Assembly (NCBI RefSeq): GCF_048403405.1
Contig: NZ_CP183129.1
Strand: one strand, 5' to 3'
Length of the DNA stretch: 64,000 bases
DNA from: Escherichia coli
Lineage (GTDB): Bacteria > Pseudomonadota > Gammaproteobacteria > Enterobacterales > Enterobacteriaceae
Part shown: in pieces, positions 12,597 through 46,302 of the stretch
Numbering within the stretch: position 1 is the first letter of the stretch
How the letters are laid out: each line of letters begins with the position of its first letter
The notes under the pieces: generated by a model
What the model was told of the DNA's origin: nothing
The model's database searches: none
Seen by the model: only the letters and a program-made list of their open reading frames with translations
Made by a program: the position numbers and the translations under genes

Positions 12597-12673
12597 TGGC
12601 GGAACGGACGGGACTCGAACCCGCGACCCCCTGCGTGACAGGCAGGTATTCTAACCGACTGAACTACCGCTCC
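12597..12673 (-). tRNA. aspV: tRNA-Asp (GTC)
   Basis: Reverse complement reads GGAGCGGTAGTTCAGTCGGTTAGAATACCTGCCTGTCACGCAGGGGGTCGCGGGTTCGAGTCCCGTCCGTTCCGCCA. Confidence 0.97.
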
Positions 12674-12805: not shown

Positions 12806-13537
12806 TTATGCCCGCCAGAGGCAGCTTCCGCCCTTTTTCTGCACCAGATCGAGACGGGCTTCATGTGCCGCAAGCTCTTCATCTGTCGCAAAAACAACGC
12901 GTAACTTACTTGCCTGACGCACAATGCGCTGAATTGTTGTTTCACCTTGTTGCTGTTGTGTCTCTCCTTCCATCGCAAAAGCCATCGACGTTTGACCACC
13001 AGTCATCGCCAGATAAACTTCCGCAAGGATCTGGGCATCGAGTAATGCCCCGTGCAACGTTCGTTTACTGTTATCTATTTCGTAGCGGGCACATAACGCA
13101 TCGAGGCTGTTGCGCTTACCGGGAAACATTCTCCTCGCCACCGCAAGGCTATCGGTGACCTTACAGAAGGTATTGGTCTTCGGAATATCGCGCTTAAGCA
13201 ACGAAAACTCGTAGTCCATAAAGCCGATATCGAACGCTGCGTTATGGATCACCAACTCCGCGCCGCGAATATAGTCCATGAACTCATCGGCTACTTCGGC
13301 AAACGTGGGCTTATCGAGCAAAAATTCATCGGCAATACCATGTACGCCAAAGGCTTCCGGATCCACCAGCCGATCGGGTTTGAGATAAACATGGAAGTTA
13401 TTGCCCGTCAGGCGACGGTTCACCACTTCAACGGCACCAATCTCAATGATCTTGTGGCCTTCATAGTGCGCGCCAATCTGGTTCATACCGGTGGTTTCGG
13501 TATCGAGAACGATCTGGCGTGTAATTGCAGTGCTCAT
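12806..13537 (-). CDS. dnaQ: DNA polymerase III epsilon subunit (3'-5' proofreading exonuclease)
   Basis: Translation [20 protein letters not shown]...GGSCLWRA, 243 aa. Confidence 0.97.
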
Positions 13538-13601
13538 AGCGGTCATTTATGTCAGACTTATCGTTTTACAGTTCGATTCAATTACAGGAAGTCTACCAGA
13601 G

Positions 13602-14069
13602 ATGCTTAAACAGGTAGAAATTTTCACCGATGGTTCGTGTCTGGGTAATCCAGGACCTGGGGGTTACGGCGCTATTTTACGCTATCGCGGACGCGAGAAA
13701 ACCTTTAGCGCAGGCTACACCCGCACCACCAACAACCGTATGGAGTTGATGGCCGCTATTGTCGCGCTGGAGGCGTTAAAAGAACATTGCGAAGTCATTT
13801 TGAGTACCGACAGCCAGTATGTCCGCCAGGGTATCACCCAGTGGATCCATAACTGGAAAAAACGTGGCTGGAAAACCGCAGACAAAAAACCAGTAAAAAA
13901 TGTCGATCTCTGGCAACGTCTTGATGCTGCGCTGGGGCAGCATCAAATCAAATGGGAATGGGTTAAAGGCCATGCCGGTCATCCAGAAAACGAACGTTGC
14001 GATGAACTGGCTCGTGCCGCAGCGATGAATCCCACACTGGAAGATACGGGCTATCAAGTCGAAGTTTAA
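13602..14069 (+). CDS. rnhA: Ribonuclease HI
   Basis: Translation [23 protein letters not shown]...TGYQVEV, 155 aa; divergent from dnaQ. Confidence 0.97.
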
Positions 14070-14791
14070 GCCTGTGGTTTACGACATTGCCGGGTGGCTC
14101 CAACCGCCTGGCGAATTCGTGGCTTGTTTTTACTCTGTTTCATCGGATTTAGCGTTAAAGGAATAGTCCGTTTCCGGGCGACAATAAGTTGTAAGCAACC
14201 AAGCGCAGGAATATGCGCATTCAATAGTTTTCCACCGTGTTTGTTCCACGGGAGAACGTGGAAACGGCTGGCGTGTAGCACTTCAAAATTCAACAAAGAG
14301 AGCCAGTCCAGCTGCCGCATCAGAGTAAACATCCGGCTATTATAGGGCGAGGTTTTGCGCAATACCGGCACAAGTTTTCGTAATCCCATTAAACTGATGG
14401 GATTGAAGCCACTAATCACCAGCCAGCCATCATCAATCAATACCCGATCGGCTTCACGCAATAAACGATGCGGATCGGTGCACCATGGCAATGTATGTGC
14501 CAGTAGACAAACATCAACGGATTTATCGGCAAAAGGAAGATGAAGTGGGTCCGCCTGCACCTGGACGGGCAGTCCTTGCGCAGAAACATTCACTTGATGA
14601 GAAACCGCGCACGCTTCGCAATTGATTTCTGCGCTTAAATTGCCAATCTTAAGCAGATGAAAACCATACATTTTAGTGAACCACGGGTTGAGCTGGCGCT
14701 CCAGCGCCTTGCGATAAAGCTCTCCCCAGGGCAAATCGCCCCAGCAATCAGGAGCCACGACAGTTTGAGGGACTCTTGCCGGTTTCATCAC
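14066..14791 (-). CDS. yafS: SAM-dependent methyltransferase YafS
   Basis: ~240-aa ORF at the position of yafS; first codon may be one Met downstream. Confidence 0.8.
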
Positions 14792-14818
14792 AACCTTCCG
14801 TTTCGCACTGAGAGGTAA

Positions 14819-15577
<759 letters not shown>

Positions 15578-34396: not shown

Positions 34397-34819
34397 TTAT
34401 TCCCGACCGCTGCGCACTTTGCCGCGCATCGCCTTCACGCTTGATTTTTGTGCTTTCGATGCCAGCCTGCGCTCTTTTGATGCGCGGGTGGGCCGCGTGG
34501 GTCGTCGGGCTTTTTGTTCTGTTGTTAAATCTTTAATCACTGCCACCAGCCGGGCCAGCGCCGCTTCGCGGTTGAGCTCCTGATTGCGGTATTCCTGTGC
34601 CTTAATGACAATCACGCCATCACTGCTGATCAAATGATGGCTGGCGGCGAGCAGACGCTCTTTGTAATACTCTGGCAGGCTGGACGCCCGAATGTCAAAA
34701 CGCAGATGAATAGCCGTTGAGGTCTTATTAACATGCTGCCCGCCCGCGCCCTGCGCACGAATGGCGGTGATCTCAAGCTCACCATCGGGGATAGCAACAT
34801 GTCGGGAAATCACAATCAT
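34397..34819 (-). CDS. arfB: Peptidyl-tRNA hydrolase ArfB (YaeJ), ribosome rescue factor
   Basis: 140 aa with GGQ motif ([10 protein letters not shown]) and basic C-terminal tail. Confidence 0.93.
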
Positions 34820-35361
34820 GAAGGTTGTTGCCAGACGGTTAAGTTCACTTCCAGATTATTCTTATCATCCGATAACCAGATCACGCCATCCTGAATCGTT
34901 GCCTGCAGCGTCATGGTACGATCGGCAAAGGCGCTCACTTTCGCCAGCTGCTCGTCGTCCAGATACCAGACGGAAAGATTGGCAAACTGCGCACATTTGC
35001 TCTGATTTTGCTGCCACCAGATTTGCGCCGCCCGACTATTATAGGTAAACAGCGCCACTTCTGCGGCCTGGGTGCAGGCTTTCTTAATTCGTCGCTCATC
35101 CGGCAGCCCCAGCTCAATCCACAAATCAATGCCCAAATGATCGTTACGCCGCCACGCTTCCGGCTCATCATCGGCACACAAACCACGGGTAAATTGCAGA
35201 CGTTCATCAGCATATTTCAGCCACGCCAGCAGGCGCAGCATCATACGCTCCTGGGTTTCTGAAGGATGGCGCGCCAGCGTCAGAGAGGCATCGAGAAACT
35301 GGTTGCGGTCGAGATCGGCCACATTAACCGTCGCTTTATAAATTGTCGCTTTAAGCGCCAT
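34816..35361 (-). CDS. yaeQ: YaeQ family protein
   Basis: 181-aa ORF at the position of yaeQ. Confidence 0.85.
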
Positions 35362-41041: not shown

Positions 41042-44000
41042 TTAGTCAAACTCCAGTTCCACCTGCTCCGAACCAATGAGGCCACGGAGATCGTTTAATA
41101 AACGATCGCTCGGAGAGACACGCCACGTCGCGCCAAAACGCAACCGCGCGCGTGCATCCGCCCTCTGATAGTAGAGATGTACTGGAATTGTCCCAGAGCG
41201 GTGGGGTTCCAGAGACTGACGGAGTCGGTTTAAAAGCTGGTCATCAATTTGCCTGTCCGTCAGCGAGATAGCAAGCCCGCGAGCATATTTTTCCCGGGCT
41301 TCGTCAATATCCATCACTTCGCGAGCGGTCATTTTAAGCCCACCGCTGAAGTCATCAAAGCTGACCTGTCCGCTGACGATAAGTATGCGGTCTTTTTCCA
41401 GCAATTGCTGGTATTTATCCAGGGCGTCAGTAAACAACATCACTTCCAGCCGCCCGGAACGGTCATCCAGCGTGCAGATACCGATACGATTGCCGCGCTT
41501 GGTGACCATAACCCGCGCGGCAACAACGAGCCCCGCAGCCGTGATGACTTTACCACGTTCTGTCGGGTGCATGTCTTTCAGCCTTACGCCTCCGACATAA
41601 CGCTCAATCTCTTTTAAATACTGATTGATAGGGTGTCCCGTCAGGTACAGACCTAACGTTTCACGTTCCCCATCTAATACCACCTGCTCCGGCCACGGTT
41701 GGCAGCTGGCGTAGGATTGTTCAATTTGTTCCGGCTCTTCGGCCAGCACACCGAACATATCGGCCTGACCGATAGCTTCCGCTTTCGCGTGTTGATCTGC
41801 CGCTTTTAACGCATCGCCCAGCGAGTTCATCAGCGCCGCGCGGTGTGGCCCAAGACGGTCAAACGCCCCGGACATGATCAGTTTTTCCAGCACCCGCCGG
41901 TTTAACTTTTTGGTGTCGGTTCGGGCGCAGAGATCAAACAGTTCGCGGAAGTAGCCGCCTTTATTACGGGCTTCGATGATGGCCTCAATCGGACCTTCAC
42001 CGACCCCTTTGATCGCGCCAATACCATACACGATTTCGCCGTCGTCGTTGACGTGGAAATGGTAAAGACCGGAGTTTATATCTGGTGGCAGGATTTTCAG
42101 CCCCATCCGCCAGCACTCATCCACCAGGCCCACCACCTTCTCGGTGTTGTCCATATCGGCGGTCATTACCGCCGCCATAAACTCCGCCGGATAGTGCGCT
42201 TTCAGCCATAACGTTTGATATGACACCAAAGCATAGGCCGCAGAGTGCGATTTGTTAAATCCGTAACCAGCGAATTTTTCCACCAGGTCGAAGATTTTCA
42301 TCGCCAGTTCAGCGTTGATTCCGTTCTTTTCTGCACCTTCAGCAAATACAGAACGCTGCTTAGCCATCTCTTCCGGCTTTTTCTTACCCATCGCACGACG
42401 CAGCATATCCGCGCCACCGAGGGTATAACCAGAAAGCACCTGGGCAATCTGCATGACCTGTTCCTGATACAGGATGATGCCGTAGGTTGGCTCCAGTACC
42501 GGTTTCAGGCTTTCATGCTGCCACTGCACGTCCGGATAGGAGATCTCTTCGCGACCATGTTTACGGTCGATAAAGTTATCCACCATCCCTGACTGCAACG
42601 GACCAGGGCGGAACAGTGCCACCAGTGCGATCATATCTTCGAAGCAGTCAGGTTGCAGACGCTTGATCAGGTCTTTCATGCCGCGCGATTCAAGCTGGAA
42701 TACCGCCGTGGTTTCCGAGCGTTGCAGCATATCGAAGCTTTTCTTATCATCCAGCGGGATCGCGGCGATATCCAGAGGCGGCTCGCCATTCTTCGCCCGC
42801 CGCTTGTTGATCATCTCCAGCGCCCAGTTGATGATGGTGAGCGTACGCAAACCGAGGAAGTCGAACTTCACCAGCCCGGCGTATTCAACGTCGCTTTTAT
42901 CAAACTGGGTGACCGGATGTTTGCCCTCTTCATCGCAATAAAGCGGCGCAAAATCAGTAATTTTGGTCGGCGCGATAACCACCCCACCGGCGTGCTTACC
43001 GGCGTTACGGGTGACCCCTTCCAGTTTGCGCGCCATGTCGATCAGCGCCTTAACTTCTTCATCCGCTTCGTAGATTTCCGGCAGCTGCGGCTCGGCTTCA
43101 AACGCTTTTGCCAGCGTCATCCCCGGATCGGGCGGGATCAGTTTCGAGATACGATCGACAAAGCCGTACGGATGCCCCAGAACGCGGCCTACGTCGCGGA
43201 TCACCGCTTTCGCCGCCATCGTACCGAAGGTGATAATCTGCGATACCGCATCACGACCGTACATGTCTGCCACGTGTTCGATAACCTGATCGCGTTTCTC
43301 CATACAGAAGTCAACGTCAAAGTCAGGCATGGAGACACGTTCCGGGTTAAGGAAACGTTCGAACAGCAGGTCAAATTCCAGCGGATCGAGATCGGTGATT
43401 TTTAACGCGTAGGCCACCAGTGACCCTGCACCAGAACCACGGCCTGGCCCTACCGGTACACCGTTATCTTTCGACCACTGGATAAATTCCATAACGATGA
43501 GGAAGTAACCCGGGAAGCCCATCTGGTTGATAACCTGAAGTTCAGTATCCAGACGTTCGTCATACTCCGGGCGGCGCTTAACACGTTCTTCCTCGTCAGG
43601 GAATAAAAATGCCAGACGCTCTTCCAGGCCCTCTTTTGCACGCTTGACCAGATAATCTTCGGTACTCATGTCCCCGGTCGGGAATTGCGGCAAGAAGTAT
43701 TCACCCAGACGCACGGTTACGTTACAACGTTTGGCTATCTCAACGGTGTTGGCAAGGGCTTCGGGAATGTCGGCAAAAAGCTCGCACATCTCCTCTTCGC
43801 TACGCATATATTGCTGCGGCGAATAGTTACGCGGGCGTTTAGGATCGTCGAGGGTAAAGCCGTCGTGGATCGCGACGCGGATTTCGTGTGCGTCAAAGTC
43901 GCTGCTGTCGATAAAGCGCACGTCGTTGGTCGCCACGACGGGCAAACCGCGCGCTTCCGCCAGTTCCACCGCAGCGTGCAGATAGCTTTCTTCGTCCGGC

Positions 44001-44524
44001 CTTCCGGTGCGGATCAGCTCGAGAAAATAGCGATCCGGGAAGTGTTCTTCATAAAACGCGACACACTCATCTACCAGCGCGCTGTTACCACGCAAAAGAC
44101 TGCGTCCGACGTCGCCCATGCGCCCGCCGGAAAGGAGGATCAGCCCTTCGTTTAATTCGATAAGCCAGTCGCGATCGATGATCGGCCCGGCAGCACCGTA
44201 CCCGCGCTGATACGCTTTTGAGATCAGCAACGTCAGATTCTGATAGCCGGTATTGTTCGCCGCCAGCACCGTCAGGTGGGTTAACTCATCACCCAGCAGG
44301 TCGCACTGGACATTAAAATCTGCCCCGACGATAGGCTTAATCCCTGCGCCATGTCCCGCTCCGTAGAACTTCACCAGACCGCAAAGGTTGGTGAAATCGG
44401 TGATCGCCAGTGCTGGCATCCCTAACGCCGCCGCCTTTTTTACCAGCGGCGCGGTTTTGGCCAGGCCATCGATCATCGAGTAGTCGCTGTGCACCCGCAG
44501 GTGTACGAAACGTGGTTCAGACAT
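41042..44524 (-). CDS. dnaE: DNA polymerase III alpha subunit
   Basis: 1160 aa, [23 protein letters not shown]... (PHP domain N-terminus). Confidence 0.97.
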
Positions 44525-44560
44525 CTTCAGATTCCGGTTTACTTAATCTCGACACAAGAA

Positions 44561-45157
44561 TCAGGACGCAAGTCCCAGTGCGCGTTTGACAGGCCCAAAG
44601 CTGCGCCGATGGTGTTCGGTCGCGCCGTGTTCAGCCAGTTTTTCCAGATGAAAAGCGGTTGGATACCCTTTGTGTTGGGCAAAACCATATTGCGGGAAAA
44701 CAATATCCAGCGCCGCCATTTCGGCGTCGCGCGTCACTTTCGCCAGGATAGACGCAGCACTGATTTCTGGTACGCGGCTATCGCCTTTCACCACTGCCAT
44801 CGAAGGCATCGGTAATTTCGGGCAGCGGTTACCATCAATCAACACATATTCCGGCGCAATATGCAGCCCAGCGACGGCACGCTGCATCGCCAGCATGGTC
44901 GCATGTAAAATATTCAGTTCGTCGATTTCGTGAGGTTCCGCTCGGCCCAGACTCCAGCTCAACGCTTTCTCTTTGATCTCTTCACAGAGCGCCAGACGGC
45001 GTTTTTCGCTCAGCTTTTTGGAATCATTCAGCCCGGCAATCGGGCGCGACGGGTCAAGGATCACCGCAGCGGTGACGACCGCGCCAACTAACGGCCCGCG
45101 TCCGACTTCATCCACACCCGCAACCAGCTGCGTGTGCGGATAAACAAATTCGATCAT
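44561..45157 (-). CDS. rnhB: Ribonuclease HII
   Basis: 198 aa, [28 protein letters not shown]... Confidence 0.95.
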
Positions 45158-46302
45158 TGTGCTAACTCCAGAACGGCTTGTGCCGCCTGCTCATCGGCAT
45201 TGCAGCGGATCTGCTGATGCAGTTCACGGAAGGTGTCGTGCATCGCGTGGCTGGTTTTCCCGTTCGCCAACAGCGGTAACAGCGCCGCAGCCAGTTTTTG
45301 CGGCTCACACTCTTCCTGCAATAACTCTTTGACTAACTCTCTGCCCGCCAGCAAATTGGGTAGAGAGACATAATCAGTTTTCACCAGTCGCTTCGCCAGC
45401 CAGAAGGTAAAAGGCTTCATGCGATATCCCACTACCATCGGGCATTTCGCCAGCATGCACTCCAGTGCTGCCGTCCCCGACGCCAGTAGTGCCGCATCAC
45501 TGGCGACCATCGCCTCACGGCCCATCCCATCCAGCATATGAACCGACAGGTCTGGCGCAACTTCAGCTTTGATGCGTTCAAACTGCTCGCGGCGTTTGGC
45601 ATTCACCAGCGGCACCACGATTTCGAGATCCGGATATGTCTGGCGCAAAAGCTGGGCCGTTTTCAGAAAATCGGCGCTAAGCATTTCGACTTCCGCACCA
45701 CGGCTGCCCGGCAACAATGCCAGACAGTGGGCATCGTGAGGGATCCCCAGCACATCACGGGCACCATTTTTATCTGGATCTAATGGCATGGCATCAGCCA
45801 TGGTATGACCGATAAAGCGGCACGGTACGTTGTATTTGTCATAAAACGCTTTTTCGAAAGGCAGAAATGCGAGCACCAGATCGGTGGCTCTGCCTATTTT
45901 GAAAACGCGTTTCTGTCGCCACGCCCAGACGGATGGACTGACGTAATGAATGGTTTTGATACCCTGCTTTTTGAGGTTACCTTCAAGAGTAATATTGAAG
46001 TCAGGCGCATCAATACCGACAAAAACATCTGGCTTCAGTTCGCCAAAACGCTTTGTCAGATCGGCACGAATATGCAGTAAGCGACGCAGACGCCCGAGCA
46101 CTTCAACAATGCCCATCACCGCCAGTTCTTCCATTTCGTACCAGGCTTCGCAGCCTTCAGCCTGCATTCGTGGCCCGGCAACACCAACAAAGCGGGCGTT
46201 GGGCACACGTTCTTTCAGAGCGCGGATTAAACCGGCCCCCAGGATATCGCCGGAGGTTTCTCCGGCGACCAGGGCAATCGTTAATGGACGCTGTTCAGTC
46301 AT
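45154..46302 (-). CDS. lpxB: Lipid-A-disaccharide synthase
   Basis: 382-aa ORF overlapping the rnhB start. Confidence 0.95.

Follow-up and report, generated by a model that had tools for sequence, protein, structure and literature searches.

The closest described system to the locus analysed here is the dnaQ-rnh region of Escherichia coli K-12. The paper of Maki, Horiuchi and Sekiguchi from 1983 (PNAS 80:7137) names in its title the "overlap of the promoter regions", and that of Nomura, Aiba and Ishihama from 1985 (J Biol Chem 260:7122) has "convergent overlapping dnaQ-rnh genes" in its title. The 64-bp overlapping-promoter region is therefore already known, from the literature since 1983-85 as well as from RegulonDB, and a sequence-only reading of the DNA studied here, which had called the arrangement a known one, was right in this respect.

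Transcription start sites of both genes are available from several published maps. For dnaQ, Cappable-seq of K-12 located starts on the plus strand of the chromosome at positions 236021 (score 405), 235991 (24), 235937 (21) and 236046 (5). Kim et al. (2012) placed the K-12 dnaQ start at 236021 as well, with 122 reads and a 46-nt leader, and found in Klebsiella pneumoniae a leader of likewise 46 nt with a near-identical promoter sequence; the rnhA signal in their data comprised only 2 reads, 670 nt upstream. SMRT-Cappable-seq of K-12 gave dnaQ starts at 235991 and 236020 and an rnhA start at 236040 on the reverse strand. Expressed as distances to the ATG, the RegulonDB starts lie at 133 and 50 nt for dnaQ and at 39 nt for rnhA, and those obtained by Cappable-seq of EHEC at 213, 130, 46 and 18 nt for dnaQ and at 38 nt for rnhA (Table S5, PMC10469882).

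The gene pair studied here is located in the window, i.e. the whole stretch of 64,000 nucleotides of E. coli DNA that was analysed. Strain TUM14771 shares a 1.7-kb stretch around the gap between the two genes at 100% identity, and in most of 5,426 complete E. coli genomes this stretch is matched at 95-99%. The pair consists of the following elements:

12806 to 13537, minus strand: dnaQ coding sequence, DNA polymerase III epsilon, 243 aa (open reading frame, RefSeq annotation, NCBIfam, PDB alignment)
13538 to 13601, between the divergent genes: gap of 64 bp separating the dnaQ and rnhA start codons (open reading frames, RefSeq, comparison with K-12)
13602 to 14069, plus strand: rnhA coding sequence, RNase HI, 155 aa (open reading frame, RefSeq annotation, NCBIfam)

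In a profile search the dnaQ product matched the NCBIfam equivalog NF004316 with 393 bits (cut-off 196); it also matches the equivalog TIGR01406 and aligns end to end, over all 243 residues, with PDB chain 5fku_D, which identifies the left gene of the pair as that of DNA polymerase III epsilon (DEDDh exonuclease). The rnhA start is an internal ATG at 13602 within a longer GTG-initiated ORF, and its product was recognized as RNase HI by the equivalog NF001236 (265 bits, cut-off 160). Thus, both gene identities proposed in the sequence-only reading, a proofreading exonuclease and RNase HI, are borne out by their equivalogs and by RefSeq, and the separation of 64 bp that it gave for the divergent start codons is exact, as the RefSeq annotations of TUM14771 and of K-12 MG1655 contain an identical gap.

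Only one base of the gap differs from K-12, namely w13560 (A here, G in K-12), a position that precedes the rnhA start by 3-4 nt and falls inside the dnaQ leader; A is the common base there in Citrobacter, Enterobacter and Klebsiella. An 81-bp stretch across the gap is present as a single copy with at least 95% identity in 5424 of the 5426 complete E. coli genomes. Five divergent gene pairs occur in the surrounding 50 kb, with gaps of 33, 64, 165, 187 and 240 bp; the dnaQ/rnhA gap is short, yet it is not the shortest locally.

All start sites were transferred to the window from the published 5'-end maps of K-12, EHEC and Klebsiella, the K-12 coordinate (k) being related to the window coordinate (w) by k = 249604 - w; the local sequence is 99% identical to K-12. 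This yielded the following positions:

13563 to 13564, plus strand: rnhA transcription start (SMRT-Cappable-seq 236040; RegulonDB 39 nt, EHEC 38 nt)
13583, minus strand: main dnaQ start, P2 (K-12 236021 in Cappable-seq and Kim et al. 2012; EHEC 46 nt)
13613, minus strand, in rnhA codon 4: additional dnaQ start (K-12 235991 in Cappable-seq, score 24, and SMRT-Cappable-seq)
about 13667 to 13670, minus strand, in rnhA codon 22-23: distal dnaQ start, the classical P1 (K-12 235937, score 21; EHEC 130 nt, RegulonDB 133 nt)
about 13555 to 13558, minus strand: weak dnaQ start (5'-end maps)

The P2 start (236021) is the dominant plus-strand 5' end in two independent K-12 datasets; the rnhA start is supported by fewer datasets than the dnaQ start. 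The rnhA start is situated 19-20 bp to the left of the P2 start, and the 5' ends of the two mRNAs overlap by approximately 20 nt. Hence, on 5' ends transferred from K-12, EHEC and Klebsiella, the transcripts overlap in the manner expected of face-to-face promoters. The comparison with published promoter maps suggested in the sequence-only reading, for which we used the genome-wide 5'-end data and the RegulonDB distances, thus points to promoters that do overlap and that face each other.

Inspection of the DNA upstream of these 5' ends revealed candidate promoter elements on both strands, together with the rnhA ribosome-binding region:

13550 to 13558, plus strand: TGTCAGACT, proposed extended -10 element of the rnhA promoter, in the dnaQ 5' UTR, invariant in 80 of 80 species
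13598 to 13590, minus strand: TGGTAGACT, proposed extended -10 element of dnaQ P2, in the rnhA 5' UTR, within a block invariant in 80 of 80 species
13559 to 13585, no strand: variable spacer of about 26-27 bp between the -10 elements, containing the overlap of both 5' ends
13587 to 13592, plus strand: rnhA Shine-Dalgarno region AGGAAG, 9 nt before the ATG, invariant
13625 to 13620, minus strand: GAAAAT, putative -10-like hexamer for the 13613 start, in rnhA codons 4-8
13679 to 13674, minus strand: TAAAAT (5/6 match), putative -10-like hexamer for the distal P1, in rnhA codons 22-26

The putative rnhA core belongs to the leader of dnaQ and precedes the ATG of that gene by 8-20 nt. Its hexamer, CAGACT, is preceded by TGt and is located about 4-6 nt upstream of the mapped rnhA start. 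An alternative rnhA hexamer, TATGTC, is mutated in 4 species. The hexamer proposed for dnaQ P2, TAGACT, is preceded by TGg, and its last T is placed exactly 7 nt upstream of 13583. TGGTAGACT overlaps the rnhA Shine-Dalgarno region, for which a modest pairing energy with the 3' end of 16S rRNA is predicted (-4.4 kcal/mol). Both promoters show the invariant pattern of a TG followed, after one base, by a hexamer whose second base is A and whose sixth is T; the rnhA hexamer agrees with TATAAT in only 3 of 6 bases, and its distance from the mapped start is short. We infer all the -10 hexamers from the sequence combined with the mapped 5' ends, and both main promoters would accordingly be of the sigma-70 type, with an extended -10 element and without a recognisable -35.

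A two-hexamer consensus promoter scan of positions 13200-13900 returned no promoter, because neither of the two has a convincing -35. As the scan demands this element, we did not count the empty result against the promoters. TTGCAG (13526-31) was considered as a -35 of rnhA and discarded: it is separated from CAGACT by 21 bp and varies among genera (TTCCAG, TAGCAG, TTGCTG). A search of the gap by eye for LexA and DnaA boxes found no CTGT-N8-ACAG and no TTATCCACA-like site, the only candidates being in the variable spacer. A hairpin of the rnhA leader pairing the Shine-Dalgarno sequence with codons 4-8 (-10.4 kcal/mol) was also dismissed, since it was no better than chance (z = 0.55; 140 of 200 shuffles were as good); this region is invariant, so no covariation signal is possible. 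The motif TGNYAGACTT, which was defined post hoc and is illustrative only, occurs 3 times in the 64-kb window versus 0.69 expected, two of the occurrences being the facing pair. Taken with the starts inside rnhA, the functional control region reaches from about 13526 to about 13680 and extends into both coding sequences.

Based on these observations, we consider it highly probable that the locus represents the dnaQ/rnhA region already described for E. coli, with two overlapping promoters that face each other across the gap. The rnhA core in the dnaQ leader would fire rightward from 13563/13564, and the P2 core, lying on top of the rnhA ribosome-binding region, would fire leftward from 13583, so that the two start sites would have passed each other by some 20 bp. 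The upstream half of each promoter would then lie within the first codons of the opposite gene, and weaker dnaQ transcription would begin inside rnhA, at 13613 and about 13667. The footprint of a promoter-bound RNA polymerase is roughly -55 to +20. A polymerase at the rnhA promoter would thus be expected to cover approximately 13509-13584, and one at dnaQ P2 approximately 13563-13638. The downstream DNA required by the two has 20 bp in common, and the open complexes should therefore exclude each other; judging from the footprints, only one main promoter at a time would carry an open complex, and elongating polymerases would traverse the opposing promoter.

The mRNA 5' ends of the two genes are complementary over 20 nt in the case of P2 and over about 50 and 104 nt in the case of the 13613 and distal starts, respectively. 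A perfect duplex (-26 kcal/mol) is predicted for the 20-nt overlap, and the longer complementary stretches span the rnhA Shine-Dalgarno sequence and ATG. With such a geometry, expression of the proofreading subunit and of RNase HI might be reciprocally coupled. The pair is absent from the 16 divergent E. coli excludons reported in the ExcludonFinder survey (PMC12288877), excludons being adjacent genes with transcripts that overlap.

The conservation of the region was followed in 80 Enterobacteriaceae loci, one genome per species, with DnaQ at least 86% identical. In this 80-species scan rnhA was divergent from dnaQ at every locus with enough flanking sequence. The gap measures 62-66 bp in 68 of the 80 species (64 bp in 44 of them) and 51-53 bp in the other 12. 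Two blocks of the alignment are invariant in 80/80 species, the first being TGTCAGACT (13550-58) and the second AGGAAGTCTACCAGA (13586-13600), and both 9-mers, including their TG dinucleotides, are therefore unchanged throughout the sample. The spacer takes every indel and has a mean column identity of 0.71, versus 1.00 in the flanking cores. The cores are 29-33 bp apart in 68 species; in the other 12, where 10-14 bp are missing, they are 19-20 bp apart, and the predicted overlap of the 5' ends still amounts to about 8 nt, compared with about 20 nt in the longer class. Conservation of third codon positions in the two genes is distributed as follows:

rnhA codons 3-9: at least 0.93
rnhA codon 10: 0.78
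rnhA codons 11-24: 0.38-0.76 (0.38-0.56 in codons 18-24)
rnhA codons 25-28, over the putative P1 -10: 0.79-0.90
dnaQ codons 1-5: at least 0.96
dnaQ codons 6-11: mostly 0.5-0.76

Such near-frozen synonymous sites are what one expects if the first codons of each gene double as the promoter of the opposing one, as the proposed layout would have it. Part of the third-position conservation may also stem from constraints that act on 5' coding regions in general. Similarly, the rnhA ribosome-binding site could be partly responsible for the invariance of 13586-13601, and the translation initiation of dnaQ, a gene devoid of a Shine-Dalgarno sequence, for that of 13538-13558.

These considerations lead to the best surviving of the rival explanations, in which the invariant blocks are kept mainly for translation or as regulator sites, and not as -10 elements. 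The second block does contain AGGAAG, and the sequence upstream of the dnaQ ATG may matter for ribosome loading because there is no Shine-Dalgarno sequence to serve it; moreover, the cores form an inverted repeat, AGACTT / AAGTCT, which could in principle constitute paired half-sites of a regulator. On the other hand, each core stands at the right distance from a mapped 5' end and has an invariant TG at -15/-14, and in 12 species the core-to-core spacing differs by 10-14 bp from that of the others, which is unlike a single dimeric site. We therefore regard this explanation as improbable in its exclusive form, and it is likely that the blocks are under dual constraint, as promoter and for translation.

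A second alternative concerns the position of the dnaQ start, as another ATG precedes the accepted one in the same frame:

13544 to 13546, minus strand: ATG in the dnaQ frame, located 9 nt before the accepted start codon, alternative start of a 246-aa product

If this were the true start, epsilon would comprise 246 aa and the gap would be 55 bp. The ATG at 13546 is present in 79 of 80 species, always in frame, the 246-aa form is called by many automatic gene callers, and in a Pluralibacter MAG (L080) the accepted ATG is replaced by ATT. In Phytobacter massiliensis (L081), however, the upstream ATG is lost through a 1-bp deletion and the accepted one is kept; in addition, the 243-aa DnaQ is used in curated RefSeq, in the K-12 annotation and in all solved structures. 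The conservation of the upstream ATG can be explained by its location just upstream of the rnhA -10 core, and the three extra codons change at second positions (ACC to AAC, GCT to GTT or GAT), which does not resemble purifying selection on a peptide. A longer epsilon is thus quite unlikely. It may be added that L080 and L081 are natural variants bearing on the choice of the dnaQ start codon. The sequence-only reading had named mis-assigned start codons and a larger intergenic region as grounds for its own refutation; the upstream ATG would make the gap smaller, not larger.

No Shine-Dalgarno sequence was found before either dnaQ ATG (13538-13566, minus strand) by 16S pairing energies, which were +0.7 and -1.0 kcal/mol at the two ATGs compared with a random mean of -2.2 kcal/mol. 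Translation initiation of dnaQ is therefore either independent of a Shine-Dalgarno sequence or weak.

The weakest rival, back-to-back promoters confined to the 64-bp gap with only their -35 regions in common, can be drawn from the fact that this layout is the commonest for short divergent gaps, such as the present one, and from the -35-like hexamer TTGCAG at 13526-31, but it is very hard to reconcile with an rnhA start (13563/13564) to the left of that of dnaQ (13583) and an overlap of about 20 nt, with further dnaQ starts inside rnhA and with the wording "convergent overlapping" of the 1985 title. Nor are the 5' ends likely to be processing products, given that the methods applied enrich for triphosphorylated 5' ends. 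In consequence, the statement of the sequence-only reading that the promoters must overlap holds as far as the overlap itself is concerned, which the mapped 5' ends support, and fails for the back-to-back pair within 64 bp that it implied.

Both genes of the facing pair adjoin closely packed neighbours:

12597 to 12673, minus strand: tRNA-Asp gene aspV, 132 bp downstream of dnaQ (ARAGORN)
14066 to 14788, minus strand: yafS methyltransferase gene, convergent with rnhA (open reading frame, RefSeq annotation)

In one long-read dataset, SMRT-Cappable-seq, an operon b0215|b0216 begins at the P2 start and aspV is co-transcribed with dnaQ. The tRNA gene also has a start of its own, at K-12 position 236910. 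At the other end, the stop codons of rnhA (plus strand) and yafS (minus strand) overlap in the palindrome TTAA (14066-14069), and there is therefore no room for a terminator between the convergent genes. SMRT-Cappable-seq detected an rnhA|gloB transcript running antisense through yafS, and yafS-rnhA is a listed convergent excludon (PMC12288877).

The divergent gap between yafS and gloB is even shorter, at 33 bp (14789-14821). The published yafS start precedes the ATG of this gene by 31 nt and is 3 bp away from the start codon of gloB, and the published gloB start of Klebsiella lies 165 nt upstream, inside yafS; this looks like another pair of overlapping promoters. Elsewhere in the window, rnhB (RNase HII) directly precedes dnaE (Pol III alpha) within the lpx cluster (41053-45168, minus strand). 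Both RNase H genes are thus found in the window, each adjoining a gene for a Pol III core subunit. Two further observations concern more remote parts of the window: the identical RefSeq genome has arfB (34407-34829) annotated as a pseudogene containing an internal stop, which is either a real defect or an annotation artefact, and a type VI secretion cluster (tssH, vasI, tssA, tssM, a VasL-domain gene and hcp; positions 1 to about 10340, plus strand) lies beyond yafT and ykfM.

To place the enteric arrangement in a wider context, more distant loci were sampled through 50%-identity representatives and then through eleven distant DnaQ relatives (48-60% identity). They display three arrangements:

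Ca. Dasytiphilus stammeri, an Enterobacterales endosymbiont (L086): rnhA divergent from dnaQ, gap of 29 bp
metagenome contig L092: rnhA divergent from dnaQ, gap of 70 bp, with the full mltD-gloB-methyltransferase-rnhA-dnaQ neighbourhood
eight contigs from seven proteins (L085, L087-L089, L091, L093-L095): rnhA co-directional with the methyltransferase gene and dnaQ
two loci (L084 and L090): rnhA not adjacent to dnaQ

The co-directional set includes Paraburkholderia (L093, Betaproteobacteria), Cellvibrionaceae (L087/L088) and metagenome contigs. Its rnhA/dnaQ junctions range from a 4-bp overlap to 167 bp, rnhA often overlaps its neighbours by 4 bp, and the clusters are flanked by mltD and/or gloB where the contig reaches far enough. 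Three single proteins of 396-516 aa (P0133, P0257, P0258) combine an N-terminal RNase H domain with a C-terminal DnaQ-type exonuclease domain. A search for the enteric -10 cores in L086 and L092, the two distant loci with divergent genes, did not find them; within the loci sampled, the proposed cores are specific to Enterobacteriaceae. Judging from these gene orders, the rnhA-dnaQ linkage is ancient.

The sole difference between the enteric and the outgroup layout is the orientation of rnhA, which is likewise the only gene turned around in Ca. Dasytiphilus and in contig L092. We lean slightly towards the view that the enteric layout arose by inversion of rnhA alone in an ancestral co-directional cluster of a yafS-type methyltransferase gene, rnhA and dnaQ, the polarity being drawn from a small sample with a single betaproteobacterial outgroup. 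If true, such an inversion would account for the close packing at either end of rnhA (the 4-bp stop overlap with yafS and the 64 bp to dnaQ). It would also mean that new promoters were built inside the leaders and first codons of neighbouring genes, and that co-expression gave way to possible mutual exclusion.

What is added here to the known region are the two 9-bp cores invariant in 80 species, the nearly unchanging synonymous sites at the start of either coding sequence, and an evolutionary reading in which rnhA alone was inverted and the five-gene neighbourhood otherwise stayed conserved. This last point does not amount to a discovery. The locus would nevertheless be a clean natural example of two housekeeping replication genes with promoters within each other's leaders and first codons. 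It also carries a lesson for annotation, as promoters can sit wholly outside the intergenic gap, and consensus scans requiring a -35 miss promoters of this kind.

In comparison with the K-12 dnaQ-rnh region (Maki et al. 1983; Nomura et al. 1985), the locus is the same one, with the same 64-bp gap and with start sites transferred from there; nothing substantial differs, the single change within the gap being the A instead of G at w13560. The resemblance to face-to-face promoter pairs and divergent excludons consists in starts that have passed each other and in 5' ends complementary over 20 to about 104 nt, and the likeness to such interference pairs is one of geometry and of a predicted duplex. 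The co-directional methyltransferase-rnhA-dnaQ clusters of other Proteobacteria share the neighbourhood and the tight rnhA-dnaQ linkage. In these clusters, however, as in the RNase H-DnaQ fusions, rnhA is read together with dnaQ, and face-to-face promoters are unneeded.
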